From assembly GCA_003990765.1 (NCBI GenBank), contig RBNJ01000340.1, positions 1-32,650 on the forward strand: a DNA stretch of 32,650 nucleotides. Direction: 5' to 3'. Origin of the DNA: Jimgerdemannia flammicorona (taxonomy: Eukaryota). Positions 7,670 through 31,619 of this stretch are shown here, piece after piece. The number at the start of each line of letters is the position of its first letter. Position 1 is the first letter of the stretch. Made by a program: the position numbers and the translations under genes. The notes below the pieces were generated by a model. The model did not search any database, was not told where the DNA came from, and saw only the letters and a program-made list of their open reading frames with translations.

Positions 7670-7770
7670 CGTGTATATACATACAATAAATATTAACCGA
7701 AGAAATAAACCGAATTTATAAGGGATGACGAGTAAGCAGGTCCGATATCTGTCCAGCTAAAAATTCCATC

Positions 7771-9376: not shown

Positions 9377-10176
9377 AATGGTGTCAAGTGTTTGCGTGTT
9401 TTGTTGGCTTGAGTCTGGAAAGGGGAGGAGTCGCTCTTCAAGCTTTTGAGACGGAGAGAGGAGAAAGATGTACGGTTTGTTTGCGTCGATCAACGATTTT
9501 CATGGAATAGTGGTAGCACGGAATGGCTTGTGATGGTGCGAACCAAGGTTTCAGAAGCCTCAATCTAAAGTTTCTTAGTCATTAAGTCACCTTCATGTAA
9601 TCGCATTTATATCGTTGTATATATATTAGCAGTTGGACGTCCCCTTGAGACAAGGCTTCGATATTGTCACGACCCAAGGAACAAGGATATTCTCATGCCG
9701 TCACCAATGCCTGGAAACCCGTTTTAATAGAAAAGCTAAACTAATTTGACCACCCTAACAGCGCACGGGACCTTGCAATTAAACCTGATGTAGACAGGTT
9801 TGTGTCCCCCGCAATGCAAAATTCCGTGGATATGTGCACCTCTCTCGTTTGGGGTGGAAGAAAGTGAGCATGTGCAGACCTTGGTGCTTTGCAACAGCAA
9901 AAAAGATGAAAGAAATTAAAAATAAACTCGATTTTTGACAGAAGCGAAGGTATTTTGTCTGCAAAATGGGAAATTACGTTTGCACAAAAGGGGACAATGT
10001 AATTATATATGCTTCATGAGAAAAAAAGCCCGTGACGCCACAACCTGTCAAACGATATTTTATGACTTCACTTAATTATCCCTCCTTGCTTTTAAAACTA
10101 AACCCCTCTATTGTGGATTGTACGTTTGTATGAATACATGCATTTTAGGCAAACAAGAGTGGCAATAGACTTAAAT

Positions 10177-10203
10177 TCACGTGATGTTTAGATGATGACG
10201 TCA
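10177..10203. promoter_or_regulatory. E-box (TCACGTGA) and CRE (TGACGTCA) palindromes upstream of the RFC gene
   Basis: TCACGTGA at 10177-10184 and TGACGTCA at 10196-10203, about 60-90 bp before the ATG. Confidence 0.45.
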
Positions 10204-10265
10204 CATAATTTAATTTTTGTGGCTGGCTGACACGCTGGCACGCTGCGCGTCTCGACATCCCAACC

Positions 10266-11378
10266 ATGACCATCTCCGACGACGATACCCAAATGCCTGA
10301 CTCCAATGAGGAGGTTACAACTCCCATCCTCCTCGATAAAGGAAAAGGCAAAGCTGTTGTTATTGACCCAACATTCAAGAACGGGGCCGTCGCGGGCGAG
10401 GAGAACCTGCCGTGGGTAGAGAAATACCGACCAGCGACGCTGGAGGACCTCGTATCTCACGAGGACATTACTTCCACCATCAATCGCTTCATTGACGAGG
10501 ACCGTTTACCTCACCTCCTTCTCTATGGCCCACCGGGTACCGGCAAGACATCCACCATTCTTGCGTGCGCGCGCAAGCTCTACGGCCCGCAATACAAATC
10601 CATGATTCTCGAGTTGAACGCCTCGGACGACCGTGGCATTGACGTGGTGCGCGATCAGATCAAGAACTTTGCAAGTACGCGCAAGATCTTCAGCTCGGGC
10701 TTCAAGCTGATCATCTTAGATGAGGCTGACGCCATGACACAGCAGGCGCAGAACGCGCTCCGGCGAGTCATCGAGAAGTACACGCGTAACGTGCGCTTTT
10801 GCATCATCTGCAACTACGTCTCCAAGATCATCCCTGCCATCCAGTCCCGCTGCACTCGCTTCCGCTTCTCCCCGCTCACCCAGGCCCAGGTTGACAAGCG
10901 CCTCGGCTTCATCGTCGATAGCGAGGGTGTCCGCCTCACCGACGACGGCAAGAAGGCCCTGCTTGTCCTCTCCTGCGGAGACATGCGCCGTGCACTCAAC
11001 ATCCTGCAGGCCTGCCATGCCGCCTACGATCGCGTCGACGAGTCCGCCGTCTATGCTTGCACGGGAAACCCGCACCCGCGCGACATTGAGGCTATCGTCA
11101 ACTGGATGCTCACCGAGGAGTTCACAACCGCCTACTCCAACATTAAGAAACTCCAGACTGAGAAGGGTCTGGCGCTGCAGGACATCTTGACGGAAGTGCA
11201 TCGCTTCACGACTGATATCGAGTTCCCGCCCCACGTACGCGTCTTCCTCCTTGACAAGATGGCGGACATCGAATACAAGCTCGCCTCGGCTGCCACTGAG
11301 AAGATACAGCTCGGGGCGCTGTTGGGATCGTTCAAGCTGGCAACAGATATGGCCGCGATCCCGTTCACGAAGACGTGA
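10266..11378 (+). CDS. RFC3: Replication factor C small subunit (yeast Rfc3 / human RFC5), intronless
   Basis: NLPWVEKYRP, LPHLLLYGPPGTGKTSTILA, LELNASDDRGIDVVR, DEADAMT, SRC motif; 370-aa open frame. Confidence 0.95.
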   Translation: MTISDDDTQMPDSNEEVTTPILLDKGKGKAVVIDPTFKNGAVAGEENLPWVEKYRPATLEDLVSHEDITSTINRFIDEDRLPHLLLYGPPGTGKTSTILACARKLYGPQYKSMILELNASDDRGIDVVRDQIKNFASTRKIFSSGFKLIILDEADAMTQQAQNALRRVIEKYTRNVRFCIICNYVSKIIPAIQSRCTRFRFSPLTQAQVDKRLGFIVDSEGVRLTDDGKKALLVLSCGDMRRALNILQACHAAYDRVDESAVYACTGNPHPRDIEAIVNWMLTEEFTTAYSNIKKLQTEKGLALQDILTEVHRFTTDIEFPPHVRVFLLDKMADIEYKLASAATEKIQLGALLGSFKLATDMAAIPFTKT

Positions 11379-11864
11379 GGGACGGTGGAAGTCCCGTGGC
11401 GGACGGCGTGCTGGGTGAATTTGTATCGGAGATTTGTATCAATGCGCTCGGGATTTGATTTGTTGTGAAGCTTTAAAGGGCAGAGCAAATCTTTGAATGA
11501 TGTCTCAAATCATAATGTCGTTTTTTGAGTCTAAGTGGAGCAAACAAAGCGAGCGCTTAATGCTTTCTTTGTATGTGTACATATGTTTAGTTATGGTGTG
11601 AAAAGCTTTTTTTTTTTTTGGTTACTTCTATTCAGTTCGTCGTTCAATTCAATTAAAGATATAATTCGGTATACAGAGTGGTACAGCAACCGGCTGGAGC
11701 TCATCGGCATCTGTTACTACTTTTTGAAAACAACCTCGTTATGGAAAGCAAGAAAAAAGAAACGCAATTATAATCATGAAGATCTATCATTTACAGCAAC
11801 GCCGAACCCACAAATAAATTCCCCAAAGTTCGTTTTAAAAAATCAACTCTGCCACGCTCCATTC

Positions 11865-13196
11865 CTAATTCTTCTCCTTATCCCTTTTCTTCTTTTTCGC
11901 TTCGTTGTTCTTCGCCTCGACCAGCGACCCCTTGTCTTCCACGGTGTCATCTGCCTCATCACGTCGTCGCTTCTTATCTTTCCCGTTCTTTGCTTTCTTG
12001 TCCTCCCTTTGCTTTTCCATACTCTGGTGTCCGTTTCCGTTCTCATCACCTCCCACTTGATTTACCGTATCGTTCATGGATGATGAGGACGTCGGGGGTA
12101 GTAGGGCGCCTGTCACAGTGAGCATGTCGTTTGCTTGGACGAGGCTAGTGAAGGAGAGTGTGACAATCAGTTGATGGATCATATATGCTTTTTTCATAGT
12201 TCCTTGGTATGTCTGTGGTATGGCGGCCGAACGCGAGAAATAAAAAAAAATGTGGCACATATACGTACTCAACGACTGTAAAGATCACAACTCCGTCCGT
12301 GGCGCCCACGCTCTCCCCCGTCTTCTTTATGACCCACTCGCCGTTCTGCGTCCGCTGCTTGTTGAACCCTTGATCCTCGCCCTCCGCACCCTCGGCGTTC
12401 GGTGCCGCGGGTTCCTCCGCTGGCGTACCCGGAAACGAGGACGGCCGCCACTCGTAGTGTGCCGTCGGAATGAATTCGCGCGGGATGGAAGCGTTGAAAG
12501 TGCCGTAGAGGAGGAGACCGATGTGGTCAGCAGATTGGAGATTGATGGTGCCGACTTGGCGAAAGAAAATGGAGAGGGGATGGTGAGGGAAACCGAGTTG
12601 CGCATACGGATTGCTTCTCAACCTGCAATACATGCGCCTGCTACCATGAGTGCATTCGAGCACTCACCTAGCTTGGATCCTTTGACAGGCTTCCACACTA
12701 GCAGGTCAACCGCAATCCAAAAGTGGCAGTATGGAGAGTCGTACATGATGCGGGCGTTCGGTTGCATGATTTTGAGATTCGAGTGAGCAAGAACTACGCC
12801 GTCAAATTGGGGGACGTATCTGTGTGTGCCCAGGTTCCATTGATACAATATCGTTAGCACACTAATAAAGAAGCTGACCCAAAAGCACAATTTCGGCGCG
12901 GAGGCCTCCGTACACCGCAGAAGAACATACCTCATAAGAAACGCATTCAACTGCTCGTTGACGCCATCAGCAGCCTGGCCGACCCAAAGCGGGGCGAGGT
13001 GGATGTATATACGTGCGCGAACTTGGTTGAAAGGGGAGGAAGCGGTGTCCTTCTGTGAAGATACGACGGCGGTGGATGCAGAGCCGTCGCCCTGGCTGGC
13101 GGTGGACTGCTTCTTGTGTTTCTTCTTTGTGGCGGCGTCGCTGTCCTCGGGGTGCTTGCGTTTCTTTGAGGGCCGTTCCTTGTGCTCAGCAGCCAT
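11865..13196 (-). CDS. RPA43: DNA-directed RNA polymerase I subunit RPA43; exons 13196-12931, 12819-12668, 12554-12269, 12144-11865
   Basis: YIHLAP...QLNAFLMRYVPQFDGVVLAHSN...SPYCHFWIAVDLLVWKP..G..LVGTINLQSADHIGLLLYGTFNASIP, MLTVTGAL, Lys-rich tail; canonical splice sites. Confidence 0.92.
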
Positions 13197-14058
13197 GGTT
13201 ACTTCAGAGCGGTTAAAATGAATTTTTTGTTTTGTTTTATTTGTTACCGACCTACAAAATGCAAGTCACAACCCATTATAACTTCTGTTCTGCAGAAACA
13301 TTCCCTACACTCGGAACGGCCATGACGTGGCCCAGTTCCACAAGGACGGCTACCACCTAGCACGACGCCGAGGCCAACATGAGCGCTGCGGGTATACCAT
13401 AAAGTACATGTCCACTCGACTACGAGAAGAACCAGGGTTGCAGGGCTCAAGATTTGGTTGGCAAGGGGGAAGGATATCGCGGGGAACATCGCAGAATCCT
13501 TACTGGATATTGAGTACCTTTGAGTACCTGCGTCTTACATTTAAGTATATGTGTACACCAAGTATGCCATGTATGTGGCGTAGTTTTATGATGCTGGGCA
13601 CAGGCGGTCGAATACAATTTCTGCGCGTCGATAGTGTACGTCGTAAATTGATGTGGGGATGTCCTGGAAAAGCTGGCTCTCAATTGGCATTTTGGTATCT
13701 TGTCTGATGCGAACCAAAGCCATCGACCAACAGCCGATATTTATTATTATTATTACAACACTCGCCCGCTCTTTCCTGCCCTGAGCGAAGAACGATGACC
13801 TTGTAAACGATTCTAAAAGCATTACCCTCGAAAATAGGGCGATCGGGAACACAAACCCGATGTAAAACAAGACTTAGATATAATTGATATGTATAATTAT
13901 ATATTTAAGACCGTCCACCATTTTATGGGGCTTTCATACCGAAAGTTCTCGTCCATGGCCATCACCTATTTTCTACCCAACCTTACACTGTTCTCCAATT
14001 CGTCCATTCGTACTCGGGCTTTCCACCAAACAGCCTTTTCTAATATCTCTTCTCCCAT

Positions 14059-16172
14059 TTATAACTCCTTCTCCTTTCCTTTGCTGGTCATGTTCTTATC
14101 CTCAGCCTCCAGCGCGGTCAGTCGCTCGACTAGCCCTGGGTGCGAGTGGTTCCACGCCGAATACAACGGGTCGACGTTGAGGTTGTTGCGGTTCTCGATG
14201 TGAAGTTTGAGAAGGGCAGAGCGAAGCTGTGCGTTGTAGCCCAACTTGCTTGCGTAGGCGTCTGTTGATCGCAAGGTATACGCGCGCACAGAAGAGAGGG
14301 AGGGAGGGGAGAAAAGTGTGAGCAACACGGTGAAAATTCAGACGGAAAAGGCTTTACAATTGACTTTTGGACATCAAACTCACCGGCCTCGTACTCGTTC
14401 TTGCGCGTATATACGTTCTGGAGGAAGGCGACGAGGTTCTCGGCGGGCGAGTAAATGTACTGCGGATTGAAAAGTACGCGTCAGTTCGATTGTTTCGCTG
14501 GATCGAACAAAGAACAATGCGACTCTCGTCAAGAAATCGCAACATACCTGGAAGAGCAAGAACCCAATTAAGGTCGGTCTCGCGGCGAACCCGAATGACT
14601 CGTACATGGCGTCGTTGTTGATGAAGAAGGAGAATTGCCAAAAGACCAAGAGGAGGTGCAGCTGGATTGTGACTAGCATTTTGATCGTGTGGTTTTGGGC
14701 CCAGTGGCCGAGCTCGTGGGCTTTTTTTTTTTTAAAAAAAAAAGTAAGTAGGTACACAATGAGGACGAATACATGATGATACCGATGTCGGCGATGGTAG
14801 CGGAAGCACGGTATTGTCATGGATTACTCGACCATCCCCTTTCCATAATCCAAATTTCACTCACCTAGTACCGCACAGATCTCCTCGGTGCCTGCCTGCT
14901 CGAGCAAGGTGTCGTATAGAACTATTCGCTTGTTCTTGAAGAAGCCATAGAAATAGGCGTTGGAGTGGGCGCTCCGCTTGGAGCCGTCGATTACGTAAAG
15001 CTGGCGCAGTGGGAAGCTAATGCGCGAGGCGAGCTGCTCGATCGCCTCTTTGAGGTCGCCTTCTTGCAAGGGGGTCACCTTGTTGAAGAGCGGCTGGATT
15101 ACCGTAGGGTATATGGTGATCACGAACATTTGGAAGGCGATGCTGTTGGGGGGGAGATGAACATACGATATCGGTTCAGATGTTCATATGCGCTAAACTA
15201 AGAGATAATAGATCAAGTTTGCTTTCTGTCTTTTTCCCTCCCCACCCTGCATCGAGATCCACGCAAGCGAACTCAAAAAAGCAACGCACATGAATACCCA
15301 AACCCAGAAATAGAACGTCTCCCCTGTCGCCTTGATGATCCACAGGAAGGCAGCCAGGACGGGGATCCCGATGGCACCGCCCAGGAGGTGGCCCTTGAGC
15401 AGGTCCATGAAGAATAGCCCCGCAGTCTGTTTGTTGAATCCATGACGCTCCTCGATGACGAAGGTGGAATAGAGCAAGACGGGCAGGCCCGAAACGGTCG
15501 AAAGGAGCGAGAGGAGGACGTAAAAGATGATCGATTGGGTAATCTGTTGGTGGCGTTACATGGGCCAGAGGCGTGGTTAGGAAACGCGCTAATGTATTAA
15601 AGGATGCACCATGTGTCGCTTGTTGCCACAAAATTCAGGGATAGGACGGAAATGGTTTCGACGCTTCGCTTGGTGGTTGGCGCTAACACATAACACTGGT
15701 GTTCCTCATCTAGCTAAACAATCAACCTTCCCGATTTGTGCATTCCGGCATAGCTATTCCCATGGCAAGAGTCCCGCCAAATGGCACTAACCTCGTATTC
15801 AGGGCCATACCCGCCAACTCTCAGCATCCAGGTCCCGCTTAAGTCCCAAAGCCACGGAAGCGCGCCAAAGAGTATGAAAACGGTGGTCTCGAGTTGCGAG
15901 TACGACCCGGCCACAAACCCAAAGCGCGCTTTATCGGAACCGTAGGCCTGAGCCTTGTCAAAGTCTTCCTGCGATACGATGTCGACGACGGCCTTGGGGC
16001 GGTTCTTCTCCTGCAGCTTCCTGTACTGGCGCCAGCTGAGGGAGGGGGGGATGGAGTGAGCGACGGTTGGAGAATAAGGTGGCGAGATATAGATAGTATA
16101 CCTCAGATATAGATCGAATGCGTAGACGAGGTAGCTGAATGCCAAGACATATTCCTTGTATGGGGTTGTCAT
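14059..16172 (-). CDS. STE24: CAAX prenyl protease 1 (Ste24/ZMPSTE24, M48A); exons 16172-16102, 16035-15792, 15543-15290, 15142-14865, 14720-14548, 14459-14384, 14261-14059
   Basis: [53 protein letters not shown] (HExxH), [15 protein letters not shown]; all introns GT-AG. Confidence 0.95.
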
Positions 16173-16417
16173 GCTCGAGTGGGTAGGAGAAGGGGAGAAA
16201 GAGATGATTCGAGTGGCTTGGAACGACCGTGCAGGAACCGGCGTGCTGGGTCATGACGTAACACTGTGCACCCCTTGCAAGGGGCGGTGACGTCAATGCA
16301 AACGAAAAAGCGAGTCCCCACGAAACAAGCCAACTCCGCTTTCCCAGCACCTCTTCTCTTCCCCCGTCAAAGCCAACACCTCCCCCACTCGACCTCTCGC
16401 TTTGACCCACCAGTCCA
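16173..16417. promoter_or_regulatory. Compact bidirectional promoter (STE24 / endosulfine) with two CRE-like sites and a 14-bp palindrome
   Basis: 245 bp between divergent ATGs; TGACGTAA at 16254-16261, CCCCTTGCAAGGGG at 16271-16284, TGACGTCA at 16288-16295. Confidence 0.55.
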
Positions 16418-17167
16418 ATGCTTCCTGCCAAGAAGAATAAGATCGATATCAGTGTATGAACCATACTTGAGCTTCAACCTTCTCCCTTATTCTGACTTGT
16501 AAACTCGAAATAGAACACTTGACCATTGTTGAACTATAATTCATTTGAACTTTCGTTAACCCTGTAGAAACTGTCTCCTGAGGAACAGAAGCTGTTCCGT
16601 CTGTACGGCAAGCTGCCGGACCGCAAGGATGTGCTGGCAAACAAGCTAAAGGTGAGCATTATGGCGGCTGCGGACTTGACACTGTGCATGCTTACACAAG
16701 CGGTACAAAGTGAATTCTAAACCCTTGACCCTTGAATAAGTGTCATGACACACAGACTGCATGTGCGCAGTAATCACCAAACCTCTCCATATCGCGGATT
16801 CCGGACATTTAGAAGACTCTTCTCATCCACGCAAAGACACCTCATCGCACAAGTAACCTATCAAAATGCTCATCGATTTCGACCGTCCAATTTCACGCCC
16901 CTTTCCCCTCCCCTCCTTCAGGAACGCAAGTACTTCGATTCCGGCGACTACGCCCTCTCCAAGGCCGGCAAGGCGGACTCTGTCGGCTCCCAGCACCCAT
17001 CCCCCGAAAATATCCCGCACTCGAACCCGACCACCAAGGACAACGCTAGCCCCACCAAGGAGTCCTCGCTCGTTCACGATACGACCGAGAACCTGGGTTC
17101 TACACCGGCTGTGGTTGCCGTGAAACCCGCGGAGGAGGTGGTGGCGGCGGGTCTCGAGAGCTCGTAA
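16418..17167 (+). CDS. IGO1: Endosulfine/ARPP19-family protein (Igo1-like); exons 16418-16453, 16568-16651, 16922-17167
   Basis: Spliced product MLPAKKNKIDISKLSPEEQKLFRLYGKLPDRKDVLANKLKERKYFDSGDYALSKAGK...HPSPENIP; FDSGDY Greatwall/Rim15 phosphorylation site. Confidence 0.92.
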
Positions 17168-17694
17168 AAGTGGGGTATGCCGAGGAGATGCAGATTGTAA
17201 GCGAGGCGATCGTGAGGTAGAATGACAACGGCGGGATTTTCCGACGTTTTATGCTTGTTCGTGATTTGCTGGGCGTTTGGTTGGATACCGTGCACGCGAA
17301 AGAGTCGTGTGCTGCTGCGTTGGCGAGGTTTGATGAAGGATGGAGAGGAGCATTCTGGAATGCGTGGGCCGCGTTCCTTCAAAATTCAAACCCTTTGCGT
17401 TGTCCGGATACACTGCTGTCGATGTTTTGTTTACTTCGTTTTGTGATTGCTTATTGTCGTTCATTCGTCTTTGCTTATTTGTCTTTATTGCTTTCTTCGT
17501 TTTCTTTCTGTCCTTCGGTTTCCTTGGACATCTTTTTTCTCCGGAATTATGGTGCGCAACAGTATCTTTTTACTTGGCAACACCATATCCATCCACACCT
17601 TCCCGCTCTTTTAGTTTTTACCCATACCTTCCACATCCATCCTGTCCCTTCCTCTTCTTCCCCCCCCCCCTTTTTTTTCTTTTCTATTTTTGTC

Positions 17695-19325
17695 TCATAA
17701 AGTCTCCTGCTGGCGTGAGTTTAGGCCCTCTTTGGCCTTCACCTGTACAAAAGCGCTGCTCGCCAATATATACACGAGTACATGAGATGGACGTTGAAAC
17801 TGTCTTTGGGATTGCGGTGTTATTTGGATACGAAACTCGAACGTGTCGGGGTCAGCGTAGGGTACGAGAAGAATCTGATACTTCAAGTCGGTCGATCTGA
17901 TTACGTGCTCAAATCAACTGGCATCTCAACCTTATTCCCTATATTTGGCAACCCAGCCGAATTTTGACATGTTAGATGTGATCAATATCCAATAGCAAGT
18001 CCGACGGAGGCGAGATCCGAGCATGCCGAGGCTTCCTTACGTCCTACGGCCCTCAAGGATAGATATCCTTTGATAAACTCACCTCCGAAGTTTACAAACC
18101 GTTTTCTGGGGCAAGCCGGTAGACGTCGCCCCCATCGGCCCTGCGGTATCGCTGCCCAAACGAGACCGCGGCGACCATGTCCCCCAAGCAAGGAGGATAG
18201 GGGAGAGTTGTACGACTTGTTCCTCAAGCGGGTCTTGACAATGAAACTTTTGAGTTTCCACCTGCAGATCTCGACTGGATTGTTCAATTGTTCTGGACGA
18301 TGATGTGCGACATGTGCGACATAGATTTGCGTTGTCCTATCACATGACCTTTTGCTGTTACACCTAAAATGGAACGCGTCACGACTGGAGAAGAGCAGTT
18401 CAGACAGCGAGAAGCTTGTAATCTTCCAAGTTAAATACTATGAGGAGCACGGCCAGTTAGATAATACAGTTACCTTTCATCTGACTATGTACCCGCTCCC
18501 TGTCAATCACCGAGAAAAGCTTGGTGTTGCCATCTGACAAAGTGTATCCAATGGTGACGCTTACATGGATGGTCGACTCAATACCGAATTTCGCTATAAT
18601 TTTTATTTTTTATCAGAATTCTTCCCTTGATCAAGTTTCCCATCTCCTGCATGTTAGTACATATTTATTTGCCATGGAACCTTCGCATCCATCCATTTCA
18701 CTTAGTATAACGATCACGTCTGATCGTCTCCTATTTCTATTTCTTATTTTATTTTATTTTATTTAAGGGGGCGGGGGGCGACACAGATTACCTCCGCAAA
18801 CTCATTGACCAGGCTCGGTGAGTTTTAAGGCATGGCGATGATGACCCAACCAGCGGTGTCTCCCCAGATAACGTGAGCGGATTTGCGACTTCAATTGGTA
18901 GGTTTCCTTTCACAAGTAAATTCAATAGGTCGACCAAGGCAATATAATAGCTCTCAGCTTTTTCTAAAGCATACAAATATTGTCCATACGTATTTCCACC
19001 CACCAAGCAAATATCGAGAGGGAAATACGTGCAAACTTGGAAAACTTGGAACAATTGCACAATTTGACGATACAACTTTGAGTGGGCCTCGTATCACATA
19101 AGTATTAAGGACCATCCCGTGCACGGTTTTCCCGAATCCTCTTGCCCCCGAAGCTACTCGAATTCGCTCGCCGTATACCTTCTTGAGGTCCGGTGGTGTA
19201 AGCCGGTTCGTGCGCGCCACGGACACAGATGTCGAAATTGATGTGTAGGAGGCGTTTTTCCTATCCAAACCGGGATTATTCAATGGTTTTAGATATTTTA
19301 ATATTTGACAATGCTTTAAGAACAT
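17695..19325 (-). pseudogene. Spliced, frameshifted gene relic with a Walker A motif (Crinkler-like P-loop protein?)
   Basis: IRVASGARGFGKT (GxxGxGKT); donor gtaatc at ~18790, TACTAAC branch point at ~18654-18660 and acceptor at ~18647 on the minus strand; further open minus segments (AKFGIESTIHV..., STDLKYQILLVPY...). Confidence 0.4.
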
Positions 19326-19855
19326 TTTTATTTAGCAATTTTGAGGAATTAGTCGATCTTTTATTTATATTAATTTAGTTTAGTGCTTTAAAAACTATAA
19401 TATTTTATAATTAACTTTGAGGCCAAATTTACTTTCTTTTAGTATAATTAGAAAATAATTCATATATAGTTATCAAGCAAGTTATACTCTTTTTTATACT
19501 TTGTAAAGTCTCAAATAGTTTGTTTATCTTATTAAACAAATAAAATAGCTGAAGTTACTATTTATTAAGTCTGATTTAATTTATTAATTTAATATTCTAA
19601 TTATGTTTTGCTTTAATAATAACATACTTAAAATAAATTATGTAATATTATTAATATAATAGAATATTATATTTGTAAATTATTTTATCAGAAAATTTAT
19701 ATTTTACTTATTATTAAATATATTTTATATTTGATTATTTAGTTAATTATCAAAATTTTAATAATGATATCTATATTTGCTAAATATATAATATATATTA
19801 TTTTATTTTATAACTAATTTATTAGAAATAAGAAAATAACTTCTTATTAAGCATA
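19300..19855. repeat. Extremely AT-rich insert, probably a decayed repeat
   Basis: Abrupt switch to near-exclusively A/T sequence with almost no CpG; no termini identified. Confidence 0.4.
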
Positions 19856-20016
19856 TTGAAGAAACGGAACAAGGATGAAGTTCCAATATAGTCTTTCCTT
19901 ATCTGATAAAACAGTGTTTCAATCTCTCCTTAAATGTTCCTGTGATACATATACATTTACCATAACCGGAAATTTGGCTATAAACTAACAAGCGTGATCG
20001 CCATCCTGATGAATTG

Positions 20017-21100
20017 ACTCAGTGGTTGATATCTGATTCGTTTCTAACCAGAATGTTGTGAAGAATAGCCAGATTGTTCCGACCTGTTACTATGTTTGGG
20101 TGCTACTATTTCCAAGATTTCCGGCGCCTGTTGGAACAGCATTTTCGCTTTTACGTACCTACCCCGGAAAAGGTAAAGCACCCAAGTTGTTCATAGTTGT
20201 TGCTGCGTCTGGGTTTTCTAGTCCTGACACCTTCTCGTGAATTGTCAGCGCCAGTTGACAGCGATTCCGCTGCATCATGCTTTCCCTGGTTATAGTAGAT
20301 TGTTCAGAATTAATGCTGTGTGTGGGTGCTCTTGTCAGAATTTTTTCTTGCAGATTTTCAGCACCTGTTGGTACAGTGGCTCTGTTTTATTATGCTTGCT
20401 CTGTTCTTTGTAAAACAAAACCGGATTTTTCAGAGTTTTTACTGTATCCATGTACTCTGGTCCCACCACAATTCTGCAGATCACTAGTGCTTGTTGGTAT
20501 AGCTGTTCTACCTCATTACATTTACTCTGGCTTTGGTAAAATTCAGCCATATTATCCAGAATTGATGCTGTACATGGGTGCTCTGGTCTCAACATCATCT
20601 TGAGGATCACCAGAGCCAGTTGATGTAATACTCCACCTTATTATACTTGCCCTACTCTTATAGAGTACAGCCAGGTTGTTCAGAGTTAATACTATATACT
20701 AATGCTCTAGTTCTAATACTTTGTTGTAGATTGCTAATGTCTTTTGATATAACCATTTTGTCTCATTTACTTATTCTATTATTAGTAGTAATAGTTAGGT
20801 TGCCTATAGTTAATACTATATCTGAGTATTCTGTTCTCAAAATCTTATTAGAGATCTCTACTGTTTATTGATAAAGTGGCTCTATCTTATTATACTTACT
20901 CTGTTCTTTATAGAGTACAGAAGATTGATCAGAGTTATTATATATTCTAATTCTATATTAACTTTAAAAATTGCCAATATCTATAAGTGCATCAGTTTTA
21001 TCTTATTATACTTATTTTAATTAAAGTAGAGCTAAGCCAGATTGTTTAAAATTATTACTATATCTGAGTTCTCTAGTTAAGGTTTATTATTAATATCAAT
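20017..21100 (-). pseudogene. Kinesin-light-chain-type TPR array (about 9 x 42-aa repeats), NLR-like sensor pseudogene
   Basis: PEHPCTASILDNMAEFYQSQSKCNEVEQLYQQALVI, GPEYMDTVKTLKN, ENPDAATTMNNLG, HPNIVTGRNNLAIL; ~125-bp periodicity (20302, 20428, 20553, 20678, 20803, 20927); stops and frameshifts. Confidence 0.8.
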
Positions 21101-21852
21101 GAGATAATATAATCTTCATTTAGTAAGATCTATAACTTTATTTATTTATTTCTTAAAAAGTAAGAGAACAGACTAAGTAGTAACAAGAGAAGCTAAATTA
21201 ATTATCTTTAACAATATTCTCTAGTTTTTAAATAGCTTGAAGATAGACTAAAGACTGATAAATTCTTAAAGTTTTCTCCTCTTTTTAATAGTTTTAAAAA
21301 AAAAAAAAACTCTATAATATTGTTAAAGAGAAGTTTCTTTTTCTTTAGATATAATATATATCTAAAATCTCTTAAAGTACATAACTTTTATATAATATAA
21401 TATAATTAGATAATATGTAAGTAGCTTTGACTACTTTTTCTAATAACTCAATAGTAATATATAGTTCTTCAAAGATCTCTATAAAACTCATGAGATAATC
21501 TTAGTAGTTGTCTCAGAGGAGAGTAGTGTAAAATTCTAATAGAGTAAATTTAGTATCTTCAGTTTTAACTCAAATATAATTACTTTTAATAAAGTTAACT
21601 ATCTTAGCTTTTATCTAATTTATATTTTTTTCTATAAAATATATAATATCTTAAAGAGTAATTTCTTTAAGATATATAATATATAGTTTAGAAAATATAA
21701 TAAAAGGTTTGATAGATCCAGAGAGTCTTTTTAATTTATCTAATAGTAAGTAGTTCTTCTTAAATAAGATCTTAATAGTTTTGTTCTACAGTTTTTTTCT
21801 TAAAGTCTATAATCAATTTTATATTTATACTAAAAGACTAAATAGTAAAAAG

Positions 21853-22094
21853 TAATACTCAGAATAATTAAATTTGATCTTAATTTGATTTAATTCAAAT
21901 TGAATTGAGGTCTAATTTAATTTATATTTAAATTCAAATTTTAATTTTCAAAATTTAATAACTTAATAAAAATATGTCCAAATTTAACAAATATTAACTT
22001 ATTAAATTTATCTTATTTAGAGAAATCTAATATAATAAAAATTATATTTTAGTTGAGTTATTATATTTTAAAGTTTGACTTTTGGAGATATTTA
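21853..22094. mobile_element. Second, truncated and inverted copy of the hAT-type MITE at 393-843
   Basis: Starts taatactcagaataattaaattt; 21940-22075 aligns with the reverse complement of ~545-700 (ttttcaaaatt.aataact.aa..aaaa.at.t..aaatttaa...). Confidence 0.65.
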
Positions 22095-22160
22095 GTTAAG
22101 GTAGATCTTCTTAATGTTATAAAGATATAGATCTTTAGAAGAGTAGAGTAATAAATATAT

Positions 22161-22627
22161 TGTAATATAGCAGATGCTTACTTTTAAAAGTATGTCAGAT
22201 TTCTGTATCTTGAAAACTTGACTGTTCTGACTCTTGCAGAGTCTCTTGAAGTTGTAGGGGAGAGTGGGTAAGTTTGAAGTGTATCTGCCTGTAGACTTAC
22301 TAGTTCCTTTGCTATCTCTTTGCTTTAAACTATTTCAATCTGAGGTTTATTCACTCAAAGATACTGGGTTATTTATATAAGTTTACTAGCTATGAGATGG
22401 TTACTAGATTATGTGGCTAAGTTATGAGTCATTTAACACTTTGTGAAATATTTCACCAGTTGCAAAATGCTATACTATATTGAGAAGCTTGATCTTGCAC
22501 TTTGCAAAATATTTAGCAAATGGCGAAATCAGGGACTGCTAACTATGTGGCTATACTACTTTGGGACTGGGTGCGATCAAGTGTCTGTTTCCTATTTCCT
22601 TCTTCTGAATCTGGCTATACTGTCACA
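22161..22627 (-). repeat. 3' LTR
   Basis: tgtaatatag...tactgtcaca; colinear with 28408-28874, about 91% identical by manual alignment. Confidence 0.95.
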
Positions 22628-22664
22628 ACTTCCTCCTGAATAGATAATCTCATCCTTGAAGCAT

Positions 22665-23126
22665 CTATTCAAACTCCCAGGCTTCAATGGTCTGTATGAT
22701 CTTGTATTGTATGATTTGTTACATTACTGTTTCCCAATGGTGTCATCTGACTCAGTCAAAGTCTGAGAGAGTCACTTCTTACAGATAGACTAGTGCTGGT
22801 TCATCCTCTCAGAATAGCTTGTAGATTCTCTTAACAATAGTGATCTGGGAATAGGAGAGCTAGCATTCTGCAATCCAATTTTCTTTGGTCATTTCTGGGT
22901 ATTGGTTGAGTACTTGGCCAAGTTTGAAGTACTCTTGAAATTCATTTCAATACTGATAGGCCTTAAAGTGTGAGATTTGAGAGAGATGAGTCTGTATAAT
23001 GCTTTGGATACTATTATAAGACTCCTCTATGGTCAGAGGTTCAGTGGTATACCATTGTCTCTCAATGGCTCTTTGGGCAGCACTAGTGATCTTGAGTACC
23101 ATTACAGTACTTTTGTTACTGGCCAT
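22665..23126 (-). pseudogene. Accessory ORF (153 aa) between integrase and the 3' LTR, function unknown
   Basis: 462-nt indel-free frame MASNKSTVMVLKITSAAQRAIERQW...EYFKLGQVLNQYP...VKRIYKLF*EDEPALVYL*EVTLSDFD...WEFE; its 7 internal stops can all revert by single transitions. Confidence 0.7.
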
Positions 23127-26100
23127 GATATTTCTTAAATCAGTTTCAGTAAATGGTAGTGGAGATTATTGTACCTGAGGGTTTTCATAGCCAAAAGGTG
23201 GTTTCTTTTATATCTTGCACAAGGTAAGGTTCTTCCCACTTGGCTCCAGTTTTCATGACCAAGAAGCTTCTACCATATTCTAGTATACCAGAACTTCATC
23301 TCCTATCTTAATAATCTCTAGGAGTTTGTGGGTCTTTTCCACATTCCTCTGTTATAATATCTATACCTTGGTTATGTAATTCTCAGCCTTCTTTCTGATT
23401 TGGTGTAGTCTCTGTATTTTCATGTCCACATGTTTCCATACAGTATCTCCATTGGATGATAGGGTTCTCTGAGAACATTTTTCTTTAAACAGTATTTCTC
23501 AAGAGATAAAGTGGGTACTTTGTAATTAGATATCCTGGAGAGCAGATAATGCTATTAGCAGATAGTGATCTCAATTTTCATAGTTATCACAGATCTTGGC
23601 AATAAAATTCTTGAGGGTCTTATTGGTCCTTTCTGCTTGTCTATTTTCTTGGGGGTGATAGGCTGTGGTCCGAATGCACTGGATCTTGTACTTCTTATAG
23701 AGAACCTCAAAGAGCTGGTTTATGAATTCTATTCCTCTATCTGTAGTTACTTATATTGAGGTCTTGAACTGGCAGATGATTTTCTTGTGAAAGAAATCAG
23801 CAATTGACTGTGCATTGGCTTCCATAAGAGATCCTGCTTCTATCTATTTTGTAAAAAGGTCTATGATGACAATGATGTATTGGTTGCCAGTCAAAGTCAA
23901 GGGTAGAGGACCGATTACATCCATTGCAATGTGGGTGAATGGTACTGGTTCTATGTGTGCTGATCCTGGAGCTTGATTTCATTGGTCTTGTTTCTGTTTC
24001 TAGTATTTAATATAGGTTTTAATGAATTTTCTGATATCTTCCTCCATCTCTGACCACTATATTGTTCTTCTTGTCTTGTTATATGTATTTGTTCCTCCTA
24101 GATGACCAAGTTCATGTACTGATTTCATTGCTTGCTCCTTCTTGTGTTCTGGTATAACTAGTAGTTTTCCTTTCTTCAGTGTTTCTCCATCAGTTTCAAA
24201 TTGTTTCTATGTTCTATTGATAATCATTTGTATCCATTCTTCCAAATGTTGGGGCATCTTTTGCTGTCCCAGATATATGATAATTCCATAGTAGAGCTCC
24301 TTATTTATGATTGATTTGTTGGTTAGAAGTAGTTCAGGGTGTCTGTGAGAGGGCATCTGCATTGACATTGGTTCTTCCAGAGTAGTGTATAATGGTTATA
24401 TCATAAGCTTGCAACTTCATTATCCATCTGGCATAGATTCCTTTGGGTTGTCCAGTTGTTAGTAGCTAGGTGAGAGCTGAGTGGTCTATTTGGATGGTGA
24501 AGTATCTTCCAGCCAAGTAGTAGTGGAACTTTTCTATGGCCCAGATGACTGCAAGGCATTCTAACTTATAGGATTCATATTCTTTTTCAGCTCCTCAGGT
24601 TCTACAGCTGAGGTATGCAATGACATACTCCACTTTATCTTTCTTTTGAGCTAGGACTGCTCTTAGTCCTTATGCACTTGTATCAGTCTGTAGGATGAAT
24701 TCTTGAGTCCAGTCAGGTCTTCTGAGGATGGGTGCCTGGGTCAGTCTGACCTTGAGTTCATCAAATGCTTTTTGTTGTCTGCCAGTCTACTAGAACTTAG
24801 TATCCTTCTTGTTAAGTTCGTAGATTGATTCTATAATATTAGAAAATTCTCTAATAAATCTGCAATAATAGGAGGTAAGTCCCATGAAGGCTTGAGCTTC
24901 TGTAATAGTGGTGGGTCTTGGGTATGCTGCCACTGCTTATATCTTGAGGGGGTCCATGTGTGTTCCATCTCAGTTGATGATATAGCTGAGATAGGAGATC
25001 TCAATTTTTGCAAATTTGCATTTTTTGGGCTTGATGTATAGACCATGCTTTCTCAGTCTTTCCATTATCTGCTGGATATACTGCAGGTGTTCTTCTGGTG
25101 TCTGGCTGTAGATAATTACATCATCAACATAGACCATCATCTATCTTCCTATGTTATAGTGGAAGATTTTGTTTATCATTCGCTGGAAACTTGCTGGTGC
25201 ATTGCACATTCCAAATGGCTTTCATAGATAGATGTAGGTTCCATCTGGGGTGATGAAAGCTGACTTTTCACTTGCCATGTCTGTGAGTCCGATTTGGTGG
25301 AATCCTGAGTATAAGTCCAAAGTGCTATAGTACTGTACTTTGTCTCTCAGTGTTATGAGGATGTCATTGATGAGGGGCAGTGGTTGGCAATCCTTTTTGG
25401 TAACCATGTTGAGCTTTCTGTAGTCAATACAGAGTCTTGGGGCAAATTCTCCAGACTTGCTGCCCTTTTTCGGGGCTAGTACAACAGGTGAGGACCAGGG
25501 GCTGCTGGCTTCTTTAATGATGCCAGCTTCTTCCATCTGCTTGATTTCTTCTCTGAGCCATTCTCAGTAGGCTGGCAGGACAGGTCTTGCCTTCTGATAA
25601 ATTGGTTCAGTATTTCCAGTATCTACTTCATGATAGTAGTGTGGGGTCTTTCCTTTGATATCCTTGAAATCTGTGGCAAGGATATCTTCGAATTCATGGA
25701 GTATTTTCTTGAGTTCTTTCTTGAGTGGAAATTTGTTTCTGATGGTGTAGCTGTGCTTGCTTGTGTTTTCCTCCTTCTTATGCTCAAGTTCAGTGATCTT
25801 GGTGCTAGTAAATACTCCTCTTTCTGTAGATCCAAATCCTTTCTTTCCTCTTTTCGTTTCCTCCAGCTTCTTAACTTCTATGATCTTTGGTTGTAGGATC
25901 GGAAAGATCAACATTTGCACCAATCAGTCCTTCTTCTTGACTGGAAATGGGATTGTAGGATTGTGATTCCTAGCAATGAGTAGAATTTCTCCAGGATAGT
26001 CTGAATCGATGACTCCTCCTTCGATTGTGATTTCGCTTCTAGCCAGGCTGCTTCTTGTCTTGAGAATCCTGATATGATCCTTTAGAATGGTCATCTCCAG

Positions 26101-28293
26101 TCCAGTTACAAGTAGGGTAGTTGTCTGGGGTTCCAGTATGGTCTCTTCTACTGTAGCGATATCCATTCCAGCTGTATTTTCTGACTTGTATTCTGACAAG
26201 ACTGCATCAGGGTAGATCTTTCAAATCTTGACCTTGATTTCTTTTTCATCATCACTATCCTCCAGGAGGGCTGGTGGTTCATCATCTTCCTCCTTCTCTT
26301 CTTCCCTGATCTGTTTTTTGAGAGCTTTCTGCCTTCTTTCCTGGTAGATCTTCTTGATTCCAATGGTATACTGGTAGCAATCATTGACATGCTCCATATA
26401 GTACATCTTGATTCCATAAGAACAGACTTCTTGTGGGGCATAACCTTCTGTAATCTTCTTGCACTATTCTTCTTTACTTATCTATCCAACTTTCTTCTTC
26501 TTTGGAGTAGTCACCATATAAGCTTCCTCTTGCTTGCTCTCTTCTTTCTCCATGTTGGGCAGGACTCCTTTGTTGACATTGATGGGAATTTGTATCTTCT
26601 GTCCCCAGTAGGTGATCTGTATCTTCTGGGCATTGAGATCGATTACTGCCTTGGCTTTGTGAAGCTATTGATTGCCAATAAGGATGTCATAGTTAGTGGC
26701 ATTAGTTATAATTACATCTACTGAGATGGTTGCTCCTCCAATCTTGATAGGAACATCTCAGATCTTTTCCAGAGATGTGGCTCTTATGCTATCAGCTGTG
26801 ACAAATACCAGCTTAGTTGCTTCTTCTACATCCCAACCTAGGCAGTCTGCTACCTTCTTGCTGAGAAGACATCCTCCTGCTCCTATATCAATGATGGCTT
26901 CAAAGATTCTATCTTCGATTTGGTATGTTGCATAAGCAGAGGTTTTGCGATTATCCTCACTTTCTTCTCTTAAGTCCTCTTGAACATTATTGGCCTTAGT
27001 TATCTTCCATCCTTATTCCTTAGTTATTTTGGCAAGTCCAAACCTCATTTGCTGTCTGAATGTTGGGATTTTTGTAAGCTGACCAAAGGTTGCATTGACC
27101 TTTTGTTGACTGAGGTCCTTGAAGATATCATACTTAAAGGTCTTGGTCTTGCAAAGCTTCTTTTCTTTTTCTCCTTCACTGGCTGGAGTGGCTTCTCAGA
27201 TGATATCTTGAACTGCTTGCTCTAGCTCCATATCTTGGTCCATCCCTTTGGCTTAGCTTTCTGTGACAGTTTCCATCCACTTTTCCACTGGGTTCTTCTT
27301 GGGTCTTCCTGGTGGTCTCTTGTAGGGTTCTTTGTGAACATCCTTTTTGGTAGTCTGAGCAGGATAGACCTCCCATTCCTCTTCATCGGATTCTCCAATT
27401 TCTTCAAAGGTGATTGTGTTGGCCTGTTTCTTATTTCTAGTAGCATTGCTTGATTGAGCCTTGTGCTTGGTTTTACTCATGTATTTATAGGAGTAGTGGC
27501 CTTCTTCTCTACAAGTATAGCAGGTGCCTTTCTTCTTGTCTGAGGTAGTGGCAAACTTCTGGACAGGGCAGCAGTCTCTTTCTCTGATCTCCTTTACTAC
27601 ATCCCCCAAGTGGGCAGTCATTTCCACGAATCTCTTGGTAAGTTCCTCCAAAGGGTCACTGTTCTTTTGCTACTCTGTAGCTTTGGGCTGAGGTGTGTTT
27701 CAATTGATCATTGTGGTGGGGATCACACTGGTTGACTTAGGTGCCTTGATTCTGACTCCTGTGACTCTCTCCATTGTATGGTCTTGTGGATGTCTGGCTA
27801 TCTAGTATCGCTGAGCATAGGTGACCTTTTGTGGCAGATCCAGAATCACTGGTGATGAGCAAATGGCCATGGCTATTTCTGGATGGACTCCTTTCATGAA
27901 GGTTGCTTCAGCTACTTGATCTTGGATAGTAGTAGCATAATCTGCAAGGATTATCTGATATCGAATTCTGGTATAGAATGTGTTTAGATCCTTGCTCATT
28001 TCTTGGCATATTGTATTGAGCTGATCCTTCAGAGCTTGCTTGATCTCATCTGTATAATATATATTTCAGAGCCAGGTCTTCTGTACTGTCAGTATAGTAT
28101 TGGCATTATTTCCTGCATAGGTTGCAGCTATAAATGCTGCTCTGGCAGGACCTTGTAGGCTGAAGGGCACAAGGGCTACTTGCTGTACTGCTGTTAGGGT
28201 CCTTACAGTGGCATACTGCTCGAAATCATCAATGAAGGTGATGATTGATTCATCTGAGGTATATCTATGGAATACTGGTGGTCTCATATCCAT
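23116..28293 (-). pseudogene. gag-pol polyprotein (single frame through RT), with many premature stops
   Basis: Gag with CYTCREEGH knuckle; protease AIIDIGAGG; RT SPWSSPVVL, RLCIDYRKLN, PFGMCNAP, YVDD (25120-25131); RNase H FILQTD, LECLAVIWA; integrase HELGH, IAMDVIGPLP, YHPQ, KWE.PY. Confidence 0.93.
25825..26240 (-). pseudogene. dUTPase domain embedded in pol
   Basis: All five trimeric dUTPase motifs: AGMDI, RSS, GVIDSDYPGEI, LVQM, RGKKGFGST. Confidence 0.93.
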
Positions 28294-28407: not shown

Positions 28408-28874
28408 TGTAACATAGTGGATGCTTACTCTTGAAAGTATGTCAAATTTCTATATCTTGAAAACTTGACTGTTCTGACTCTTGCAGAGTCTCTTGAAGTT
28501 ACAGGGGAGGGTGGGTGAGTTTGAAGTATATCTGCCTATAGGCTTATTAGTTCCTTTGCTATCTCTTTACTTTAAACTATTTTGATCTGAGGTTTATTCA
28601 CTCGAAGATACTGGGTTATTTATATAAGTTTGCTAGCTATGAGATGGTTACTGGATTACATAGCTAAGTTATGAGTCATTTAATACTTTGCGAAATATTT
28701 CACTAGTTATGAAATGCTATACTATATCAAGAAGCTTAATCTTGCACTTTGCGAAATATTTAGCAAATGGCGAAATTGGGGACTGCTAACTATGTGGCTA
28801 TACTACTTTGAGACTGAGTGTGATCAAGTATCTATTACCTATTTCCTTCTTTTGAATCTGGCTATACTGTCACA
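28408..28874 (-). repeat. 5' LTR
   Basis: tgtaacatag...tactgtcaca; followed on the minus strand by a degenerate PBS-like tgatatcc... Confidence 0.95.
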
Positions 28875-29160
28875 ATATATAATAAATAAAACTTATTATA
28901 TATAAAATATTATAAGATTACTACTAAGTAATTTTAGATATTTAAATAATTATCTAAAAATAAATAGAGTTCTTTTAATTTCTTTTATTAATAATTATAT
29001 ATCTATATTATAAAAATTAATAAATAAATTAGACAAAGTTATTAGATATATAATATTATTTAGTAATTATATTATTTTATTAATAATATCAAATAGAATT
29101 AGTTATTATTAGATATATATAATATTACTTTTTTAAGTTGAGTAACTTTATATAATATTT

Positions 29161-31030
29161 ATAACAGTTTATTATATAGTAATAAAGTAATTAAAAATTT
29201 CAACAGAATTTCCAATAGAGTGGTTATTTTTTTTTTTTTAAAAGTTACTTAAACTCTCTTATTTATTACCAAACTAATATATACTAACTATAATATACAA
29301 ATGTCCTACCTCTACTCAATCTCTCTGAGGGGTCTACCTTCTATTCTTTTATAATTAAAAAAAACTACTTCTCTGATAGTCTAAATTCTCTTCTTATTCT
29401 TTGTATATATTCTTTTTATCAAATCTTAGTAAAGACTCCCCATAGGTCTCCATCTATCTATTATCTATTCAACAATTCTAATAATAGCTACTCTCACCTC
29501 ACTACTCTAATTTCTAATAATAATCTCTATCTATTCTTAAAGATACATATATAGTTAATATTCAGATAGTCTAATCTAAACAACAAGAACCTACTCTACT
29601 AAAAGTCATTTATTCTCAGTCTCTTTCACTAGATATAACTAAAGGACATCTCATCTTTCTTCTTTTATCTCTATAGGTCACATCTCTAGTTAGCTCTCAA
29701 TTATTAACTAAAAATCTGATAATACCTCATACTTACTCAGCTAATGTTCTGGAGTCTATACTACTTTACTCTTCTATCTCACATTGAAGCACTCTTTATA
29801 GTCAACAACTCTCTATCAACCAAATATCTCAATCTAAAGTTCAGTATTATATTCTACTATAGTAGCTATTATTATACTACTTAGAATCTAATAAAGTAAT
29901 TATAGATATATTTATATATAGTATAACTATATATAGATATATCTAGTACATCATATTTAGCTATAGCCCCAAATCTATATAAATACTCTCTGTACTGAAT
30001 ATGTTATAACCTTAGTCAGAAAGTAGAAAAAAAGTAAAAGTCAATTATCTGATATACTTAAAAAAAGAATATTTATTAAGAGTCACTTAATTTATAGAAA
30101 ATTATAATACTTAGGAGAAACACCTGTCAAGAACTACTGCTAGAAGTTATAAGCTTTATTTCTTTCTACTTTGGTTCACTTTTTAATATAAAGAAAAAGT
30201 CTACTAATTTGGTTTACTTACTAGATTAAGCCAGAAATCTGTTATATTTTAGTCTATTTCTCAGATAAGACCAAAAAACTTAAGAATTTACTTTTTAGAT
30301 AAAGTTAAATAAACTCAAGAATTTGTTCTCTAGATGAAGCTAGACAAATTAGAAAATCTGCTTTATTATAATTTAATAGTAGTAGAAAGTTACTTCTATC
30401 TATAAGCAATCTCTTCTCAAGAAGTCTAGAGTATAGATAATCTTTAGAAGAACTTGAATTATTCAATCTTGGTCTACTTTCTAAATAAAGTCTGAAAATT
30501 TTATCATCTATACTTTTCAAGAAGTCTGTCCAACTTAGACAATTCAAATTCTGAAGAATTACTATTATCTACCTGACTTGAATAATTCAAATTCTGAAGA
30601 ATTACTATTATCTATCAAACTTATCATATTATGTAAAATCTATATTCAATAATTTATACTATCTAAAGAAATCCATATCATCTAAAGAAATCTATACTAT
30701 TTAAGAATTCTGCTAAATCTGTATCAAATTAAAAATCTGTTAAATTATTCATATTATATAAATAAAAGAACCTATATCTATTTTTTTTAAAAGAAACTAC
30801 AGAATATTTTATTACTTTTTATTAAAAAAAAGAAAAATATAATAGTTTATTATATAGCAATAAAGTGACTGAAAATTTTAATAGAATTTTTAATAAAGTA
30901 GTTAAAAATATATATTATATATAGTATAACTATATATAGATACATATACCCAGTATATTATATTTAGCTATAGTCTCAAAGCTATATAAATACTCTCTAT
31001 ACTGAGTATATTGTAACCTTAGTCTGAAAG
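29161..31030. repeat. Split direct repeats A1 (29161-29226), B1 (29912-30023), A2 (30839-30905), B2 (30915-31030) in a decayed element
   Basis: A = ataa.agtttattatatag.aataaagt.a.t.aaaattt.aa.agaattt..aata.agt.gtta; B = tatatatagtataactatatatagata...aaatactctct.tactga.tat...taaccttagtc.gaaag. Confidence 0.75.
30541..30610. repeat. 43-bp-period tandem duplication
   Basis: aattcaaattctgaagaattactatta at 30541 and 30584. Confidence 0.8.
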
Positions 31031-31619
31031 CTAAAGAAAGACTTAAAGCTCTGCTTTTTAATATAAGAATAAAGCAGTATTCTTATTTAGAACTCTCAGA
31101 TCCAACTTGTTAACAATTCTAAGTCTAATTAACTTGAAATACAAATATAGTATCTTTACTAATATAAGAATCTAAAAGTGATACTTAGACTATACTGCTA
31201 TAATAGATAATTGAAACTTAGTACTTCCTAGAACTTAGAGCTAATAGTTATCTTGATTATTCACAATATATTAATTCTATCAGTATATAGTTTTATTACA
31301 ATATATATAATTATTAATAAAGTAATAAAATATCTCTTATTAGAGTATAAAGATATATATATATGAGTTCAAGAATACTAAAGACTTATTTTATATTATA
31401 TTAATTTACATATACTTATTATATAGTTAATACAGAAGTTATAATTTTTACCAGTAGACCTTTAACTAAGTTATTTATTATTATCTAGTATAAAATTATT
31501 AAGCTTATATATATATATCTTATTCTGTAATATAGATAAATTTGATTGTAAAAATAAAATTATAAAGAATTATTTACATTTGTTTTTATAAATAAAACAT
31601 TCTTAATACTGGTCTGAAC

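Follow-up and report, generated by a model that had tools for sequence, protein, structure and literature searches.

The analysed stretch of DNA (here called the window) is 32,650 nucleotides long and carries a compact run of host genes at positions 2000-18500. Among them are genes for an SDR protein (5456-5872, plus strand), a methyltransferase (8217-8567, minus strand), an RFC small subunit encoded in one exon of 370 aa (10266-11375, plus strand), RPA43 (12148-12663, minus strand), a Ste24-type CAAX protease (14383-16250, minus strand) and an endosulfine (16736-17164, plus strand). In bit score, the RFC subunit is closer to human RFC5 (464) than to budding-yeast Rfc3 (382), which does not discriminate between host kingdoms, and its Atlas neighbors come from a mixture of eukaryotes. 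Next to these compact eukaryotic genes, with a GC content of about 0.49, an AT-rich block (GC 0.19-0.27) contains the element studied here, whose CpG o/e is 0.10 versus 1.04 in the host genes. AT-rich blocks were observed at 1-1900, 19000-22160 and 28875-31500 (GC 0.20-0.27, CpG o/e 0-0.66). Classical RIP-like indices were found at 28900-31500 (TpA/ApT of 1.26 and (CpA+TpG)/(ApC+GpT) of 0.64), and the Gypsy copy shows its CpG loss without such indices. Older repeats, themselves decayed, surround the element.

The element is a decayed Ty3/Gypsy LTR retrotransposon on the minus strand of the window, bounded by two LTRs of 467 bp. Pairwise alignment gave the exact ends of the 5' LTR (TG...CA; 28408..28874) and the 3' LTR (22161..22627), which differ by 44 transitions, 4 transversions and 5 gap columns across 480 columns. 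Both LTRs are flanked by ATATAT, a possible target-site duplication of low complexity. The polypurine tract AGGAGGAAG (22629..22637) lies directly upstream of the 3' LTR and is identical in a related element on the metagenome contig L001, described below.

Following the 5' LTR, ORF1 begins with a decayed gag part containing a CCHC-type knuckle (27400..28293), which aligns in translation with gag of L001 and of the proteins P0021 and P0022. Pfam searches of the frame starting at 28293 located an aspartic protease (RVP_2; 26605..26952, residues 448-563, E 4.7e-7), a dUTPase domain in the interval between protease and reverse transcriptase (PF00692; 25825..26196, residues 700-823, E 6.5e-21), a reverse transcriptase (RVT_1; 24976..25470, E 4.5e-31) and an RNase H (RT_RNaseH / RT_RNaseH_2; 24403..24780, E about 4e-29). 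All of these share a single frame. The integrase then follows in a frame of its own, and junction alignment together with three-frame translation of the window and L001 showed that its start codon position (24308-24306) overlaps the ORF1 stop TAA (24303-24301), the junction spanning 24301..24308. The integrase ORF (23083..24308) is in +1 relative to ORF1, as delimited by Pfam, translations, an indel and a stop in register with L001. It comprises an H2C2 domain (24155-23991), the DDE core (rve; 23942-23652), a GPY/F module at about 23240-23128, read in the translations as KWE[EG]PY...NR[FL]K[KR]Y, and the TAG stop at 23085-23083. The LTRs with TG...CA ends, the polypurine tract adjoining the 3' LTR, the GPY/F module and the Pfam order RVP_2, RVT_1, RT_RNaseH, Integrase_H2C2, rve are those of Ty3/Gypsy elements (Metaviridae). 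The architecture given in the initial annotation, gag-PR-dUT-RT-RH-IN plus ORF3, is therefore not quite accurate, the integrase being encoded by a separate +1-frame ORF. The chromodomain of chromoviruses is absent, as no Chromo match at E values up to 10 was obtained by Pfam in three frames of 22629-23330, nor was one found in the L001 integrase or in 21 members of the ORF3 family.

In the window copy, the integrase is broken by a 1-nt deletion at 23242 and by many stops, one of which (TAA at 23118) is a private mutation lying earlier than the stop in register with L001. Because of the deletion, which falls in the C-terminal domain by comparison with L001, the window integrase seems to be in frame with ORF3. 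A loose end at 23242 was also seen in contigs of a soil metagenome run.

A disrupted frame upstream of the polypurine tract

The ORF3 frame (22665..23126, minus strand) runs from ATG at 23126-23124 to TAG at 22667-22665, i.e., 153 codons plus the stop. It is in +1 relative to the integrase end, overlaps it by 44 nt and ends 27 nt before the purine tract. The initial annotation had proposed a hidden accessory ORF here, ending shortly before the tract and interrupted by four TGA, one TAG and two TAA codons. Translation confirmed this position and gave the strand as minus, a point on which that annotation was silent, and a codon-by-codon reading found the seven internal stops at codons 60 (TGA), 89 (TAG), 106 (TGA), 116 (TAA), 125 (TGA), 128 (TGA) and 136 (TAA). 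The motifs EYFKLG, KRIYKLF and VT..DF pointed out at that stage are all present in the translation. The frame was also correctly described as free of indels, since the global alignment with L001 is gapless from the deletion at 23242 to the ORF3 stop and protein alignments with 9 and then 20 relatives show no internal gaps.

At this base composition, about 9.9 stops per 154 codons are expected by chance. The other five frames over the same stretch contain 4 to 13, one plus-strand frame having just 4. The number of stops does not set the ORF3 frame apart from chance; only its relatives show it to be real.

An exhaustive HMMER search with the X-masked frame against 1.84 billion representatives returned exactly three matches (E 3.9e-52, 3.0e-39 and 3.1e-16), each a short stand-alone protein. 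Cluster members and a word-indexed profile search extended the set to 20 relatives, which form 14 clusters when grouped at 90% identity. Unnamed or 'hypothetical' throughout, they stem from ENA/JGI metagenome contigs of 512-3003 bp; L001 is the one homologue for which the genomic context is visible. A likeness to uncharacterized proteins of early-diverging fungi, suggested earlier, found no support, as the homologues are all unnamed metagenome proteins and no named fungal protein surfaced. One match of the metagenome scan, L002, was rejected: it is a high-GC bacterial contig that shares just the seed word QRAIERQW, located inside a membrane protein. Genome-contig and viral-contig collections yielded no further DNA copies.

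The alignment of all 21 rows has no internal gap. The same Met start is found in 14 rows, while the remaining 7 begin at internal Met 33, 61 or 79, and 7 of the 21 share the C-terminal end EAWEFE. This acidic-aromatic terminus and the blocks AAQRAIERQW and EFQEYFKL are invariant. Four relatives are intact, each with exactly 153 aa and with pairwise identities of 69-85%; the probability of a random open frame of 153 codons at this composition is about 2e-4. Open 153-codon frames thus exist in the family, and Pfam finds neither a chromodomain nor a standard part of pol in it.

Relatives have sense codons at all seven positions at which the window copy has a stop, mostly for Arg, Gln or Lys. Arg is found at codon 60 in 10 of 17 relatives, at codon 116 in 10 of 16 and at codon 128 in 12 of 12; Gln is found at codon 89 in 17 of 19. 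Codon 106 is Lys in 9 and Arg in 7 of 18 relatives, codon 136 is Thr in 6 and Gln in 2 of 9, and codon 125 is mixed. Taken together with the CpG o/e of 0.10, these residues fit an origin of the stops by C-to-T type decay; the initial annotation had noted that all of them can be reverted to CGA, CAG or CAA.

Among public runs, part of the element was detected in one soil-metagenome DNA run (share 0.06) and in no RNA run. Its contigs covered 29 of 30 bins of the element with 1490 pieces of 80-99+% likeness, namely 82 pieces at 99+, 268 at 95-99, 637 at 90-95 and 503 under 90. The window has A or T where the soil contigs have G or C at 319 places, versus 205 places for the reverse, and this excess likewise fits C-to-T type decay of the window copy. 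The run also contains a joint that 'goes back 6205' and another that skips 6299 nt, as is typical of a solo LTR.

A largely intact relative and codon constraint

The window element aligns collinearly, with 72% nucleotide identity over 6.3 kb, with the metagenome contig L001 (6479 bp). The L001 integrase ORF ends in ...NRLKRYHGKSTEYSHSPQDH, with the stop at 5836-5838, and ORF3 (5795-6256) follows in +1 with an ATG of its own and an overlap of 44 nt. The ORF3 stop lies 31 nt upstream of the identical purine tract, which is followed by the LTR start TGTGAC. No competing ORF of at least 60 aa was found over L001 ORF3 on either strand. The start codon stands in a strong context, with A at -3 and G at +4, in both copies (ACCATGG in L001 and ATCATGG in the window).

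L001 is itself not fully intact, with an in-frame TAG in the integrase core and a gag ORF that starts later than in its relatives. The TAG (5077-5079) coincides with an in-frame stop at the same codon in the window, at about 23860 on the minus strand (DLFTK*[IV]EAG). Since several further Trp positions of the L001 integrase are also stops in the window copy, the shared stop is more probably a mutable codon that happened to decay in both copies than a site of programmed readthrough. Positions 1-372 of L001 comprise an ORF3 tail, a polypurine tract and an LTR that are 79% identical to the contig's own 3' end (6224-6479), and the contig ends appear to represent either two diverged elements sharing an LTR in tandem or a chimeric assembly. 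The L001 LTR end contains at least 4 tandem repeats of 18 nt. Two 30-nt islands on the minus strand of the window, 28613-28584 and 28383-28354, are each identical to L001 at 29 of 30 positions, versus 68% overall. The island within the LTR contains AATAAA, likely a poly(A) signal; the other follows closely on the 5' LTR, in the leader, and may be a region for primer binding or packaging.

Between the window and L001, ORF3 differs at 77 third codon positions but only at 36 first and 33 second positions. The dN/dS ratio of the ORF3 frame is 0.107, compared with 1.14 and 1.12 for the two alternative frames, which indicates purifying selection on the ORF3 frame. With synonymous sites saturated (pS about 0.7), pN/pS is the safer measure; it amounts to 0.28 for ORF3, 0.25 for gag, 0.26 for PR-dUT-RT-RH, 0.30 for the dUTPase and 0.22 for the integrase in this comparison of two DNA copies, one of which (the window) is itself decayed. 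Shifted-frame controls gave pN/pS values of 1.0-1.26, and an out-of-frame run over pol gave 1.02. At the amino acid level, ORF3 is 64% identical between the two copies, gag-pol 65% and the integrase 60-73%. ORF3 resembles gag, pol and integrase in pN/pS and has therefore been kept like these core genes. Within the 44-nt overlap, the ORF3 reading is the conservative one, with 9 of 15 residues identical, and the reading as integrase tail is poorly conserved.

On the strength of the relatives and of these codon patterns, we consider it very probable that a Ty3/Gypsy lineage with a dUTPase and without a chromodomain, represented in the window by a dead copy, has in ORF3 a genuine third gene, under purifying selection like gag, pol and integrase. 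The complete explanation, in which this gene is combined with the working model of its function given below, appears likely to us, if less firmly so.

Two other views of the frame deny it this status. If it were no gene at all but a frame read by chance in a 3' untranslated region that has decayed, its seven stops, close to the roughly 10 expected, and the plus-strand frame with just 4 would cause no surprise. Such an origin does not account for four intact relatives of 153 aa that align without gaps, for the bias toward third codon positions or for a pN/pS of 0.28 where control frames give about 1; judged by relatives and codon analysis, the chance reading counts as refuted, and we attach next to no probability to it. 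An envelope remnant or miniature, or a fragment of a host gene that was captured and is passively carried, would suit the location of ORF3 in the env position, and excerpts of PMC5408684 document the capture of extra ORFs by LTR elements. The frame has neither a hydrophobic segment nor a signal peptide, though, and no homologue outside the element lineage was found among the 1.84 billion representatives; its constraint matches that of the core genes, hence it is not passive cargo, and it is not a gag duplicate either. We regard this origin as very unlikely.

Possible expression and predicted product of ORF3

The junction between ORF1 and integrase is repeated in related elements. In L001 (4609-4619), the integrase ATG overlaps the ORF1 stop within ATGAATAA, where the window has ATA in place of ATG. 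The 1499-aa protein P0021 (51% identity in gag) lacks an integrase Pfam domain and ends at the same place as ORF1, and the +1 relation from ORF1 to integrase is conserved in three diverged elements. We infer that the element family is built of three successive +1-frame ORFs, i.e., gag-PR-dUT-RT-RH, integrase and ORF3. From this layout, the step from RNase H to integrase would seem to involve termination-reinitiation or programmed +1 recoding, either of which would be unusual for Ty3/Gypsy elements. For ORF3, expression from a spliced subgenomic RNA is equally possible as termination-reinitiation or +1 recoding; according to excerpts of PMC5408684, spliced messages are the typical route by which LTR elements express their ORF3s. 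Because the ORF3 reading is better conserved across the 44-nt overlap, initiation at the ORF3 ATG is favored over a late +1 shift. At the pol stop, 28 of 30 nucleotides are conserved between the window and L001. This island could hint at recoding instead of independent initiation, but its conservation is not exceptional, as 8 other 30-nt windows reach 29 of 30.

The ORF3 product of 17-18 kDa is predicted to be soluble and all-helical, with seven helices. In the four intact copies, the highest 19-residue Kyte-Doolittle mean is 0.17-0.46 and GRAVY is about -0.6. This agrees with the earlier view of a soluble protein without a transmembrane segment or signal peptide, and the claim that an accessory ORF other than Env occupies the env position is supported by the intact relatives and by the lack of a hydrophobic segment. 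An Env or errantivirus-type ORF3 was rejected on the same hydropathy values and because no Env family was matched in Pfam, where Glycoprotein_B appeared in 1 of 21 members at an E value of 0.15, which is noise. Gag-derived origins were likewise rejected: for an accessory protein resembling the Ty1 self-inhibitor p22, BLASTP against the element's own gag gave a best E value of 0.75, and for a gag duplicate, comparison of the ORF3 profile by hhalign with an alignment of four gag sequences gave a probability of 0.13%.

Domain searches returned nothing beyond noise. Pfam gave no credible match for the window frame, three frames of the stretch from integrase to polypurine tract, or the 21 members; HTH_Tnp_Mu_2 (Mu I-gamma) was reported in 4 of 21 members at a noise-level E value of 0.031. 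NCBIfam matched a transporter in 1 of 21 members (E 0.074, noise), and the best PHROGs match was an unnamed family in 3 of 21 members (E 0.0083, not beyond noise). A sequence-profile search of the PDB gave an asparaginase as best match (E 0.086), with the TrfB/KorA helix-turn-helix at a noise-level E value of about 1.1. The two helix-turn-helix matches are, at this level, the sole pointers to a possible activity.

Structure prediction was of low confidence as well. The AF2 model built from 21 rows was poor (mean pLDDT 51.7), and the ESM Atlas model (pLDDT 0.42) had unrelated structural neighbors. With the former model (pLDDT 52), Foldseek found no match above background in the PDB (best E 2.3), and a wide VIA-align search peaked at Z 6.6 for GLTP/ACD11-type helical chains, a value that falls short of the background stated for helical models. 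TetR-type chains reached only Z 4.5 or Foldseek E values above 4 on this model of pLDDT 52. The predicted self-association of two copies scored 0.14 against a mark of 0.32, which is evidence neither way. Classical NLS or NES patterns were absent from the four intact copies, which is weak evidence.

The initial annotation had guessed at anti-silencing, targeting or regulatory roles. As a working model, the ORF3 protein would be a trans-acting regulator or adaptor acting on the element's own nucleic acid. Like CERV of Cer1 or retroviral Rev/Tas-type proteins, it might take part in the handling of RNA in the nucleus or in expression directed by the LTR. Small amounts would be produced, from a spliced subgenomic RNA or by termination-reinitiation after the integrase ORF, the latter with the same stop/start-overlap geometry as the link between ORF1 and integrase. 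By analogy, we tentatively favor such a regulatory or adaptor protein for the element's own RNA or DNA, at well below even probability. Next comes an integrase-linked targeting factor standing in for the missing chromodomain, to which we would give about one chance in four. An antagonist of host silencing seems unlikely, and the remaining probability falls to some other activity.

ORF3 might also be no separate protein but a C-terminal integrase module, produced by a programmed +1 frameshift in the 44-nt overlap and acting as a targeting domain in place of the chromodomain. It occupies the very position of the chromodomain of chromoviruses in a lineage that has none, the +1 step is the same as that from ORF1 to integrase in three diverged elements, 28 of 30 nucleotides around the integrase stop are conserved, and the window copy lies inside an AT-rich, repeat-derived block. 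Yet an ATG in strong context heads the frame in both DNA copies, and over its first 15 residues the ORF3 reading is more strongly conserved than the integrase reading. No recognizable slippery site was seen at the junction, whose conservation is not exceptional, and no protein of more than 153 aa or fusion with the ORF3 domain occurred among 8000 scored candidates, a weak negative. We therefore hold an integrase module to be improbable. Similarly doubtful is a more far-reaching scheme, in which the chromodomain was replaced by an unrelated helical DNA- or chromatin-binding ORF3 and the three +1 ORFs are expressed by serial recoding or termination-reinitiation. If true, serial recoding or reinitiation would fix the stoichiometry and supply either a free targeting cofactor or an integrase-ORF3 fusion, which would steer integration into AT-rich heterochromatin. 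This would amount to a new way in which a retrotransposon chooses its targets and to a polycistronic mode of expression new to LTR elements.

ORF3 among additional ORFs of LTR retrotransposons

The initial annotation had called the Gypsy architecture undescribed, which is too strong in view of excerpts from three sources. A dUTPase between protease and reverse transcriptase is reported for fungal Gypsy elements in PMC2864245, where the legend of Figure 3 also lists an 'add. ORF ... unknown function'; env-position ORFs other than Env are known from PMC10309623 and PMC5408684 in part, and the former describes such ORFs of unknown function as common in LTR retrotransposons. ORF3 shows the traits of this class of additional ORFs (aORFs), with a separate frame, an ATG of its own, intactness in four copies and a pN/pS of 0.28. 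On this evidence, we count it as a genuine, lineage-specific accessory gene of this known class. Like the env-position additional ORFs described in these excerpts, it lies between pol and the polypurine tract/3' LTR and has no Env homology. It differs from them in being short (153 aa), in its +1 overlap with the integrase and in the purifying selection shown for it here. Its family matches none of those searched, although the 'add. ORF' families of PMC2864245 may include the same ORF. A literature text search found no description of the ORF3 protein family, bearing in mind that sequence is not text-searchable and that an entry in a TE library is possible.

Elements that share the dUTPase between protease and reverse transcriptase are PosPlaTy3-5 of Postia, the Phanerochaete elements and Tmt1 of Tuber, according to excerpts of PMC2864245 and PMC12581995. 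Tmt1 is said in the latter to carry a chromodomain, which the present lineage lacks. The chromodomain of chromoviruses is a positional analogue only: it likewise directly follows the GPY/F module of the integrase, whereas ORF3 has no Pfam Chromo match, uses a frame other than that of the integrase and is predicted to be all-helical. The rotifer elements Juno, Vesta and TelKA, as portrayed in excerpts of PMC5408684, come close in several respects, with a dUTPase between protease and reverse transcriptase, a GPY/F module without chromodomain and family-specific non-Env ORF3s. Their ORF3s are enzymatic (GDSL, DEDDy), coiled-coil or transmembrane proteins, and Pfam finds no such domain in the ORF3 described here. 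Their hosts are bdelloid rotifers, while the present host looks fungus-like.

CERV of the Cer1 element of C. elegans offers a further parallel. Like ORF3, it is an env-position, non-Env and lineage-restricted accessory protein of a Ty3/Gypsy element, and it is needed for export of the genomic RNA (PMC10309623, in excerpt). The same excerpt describes CERV as a phospho-regulated protein of 517 aa encoded by a 5-exon spliced mRNA that shares exons with gag, in contrast to the single ORF of 153 aa found here. No nematode protein was among the HMMER matches, which comprised three metagenome clusters out of 1.84 billion representatives in a database search rather than a pairwise comparison.

ORF3 is constrained like gag and pol, and the element therefore seems to need it. 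Stop-riddled copies such as the one in the window can conceal real genes, which family comparison alone reveals. Env-position extra ORFs are widespread and a role is known for almost none, CERV of Cer1 being a rare exception. With its separate, overlapping integrase ORF and without a chromodomain, the ORF3 lineage offers a compact and testable case for a non-Env accessory role in what is probably a fungal retrotransposon, be it in RNA export, LTR activation, target choice or defense evasion.
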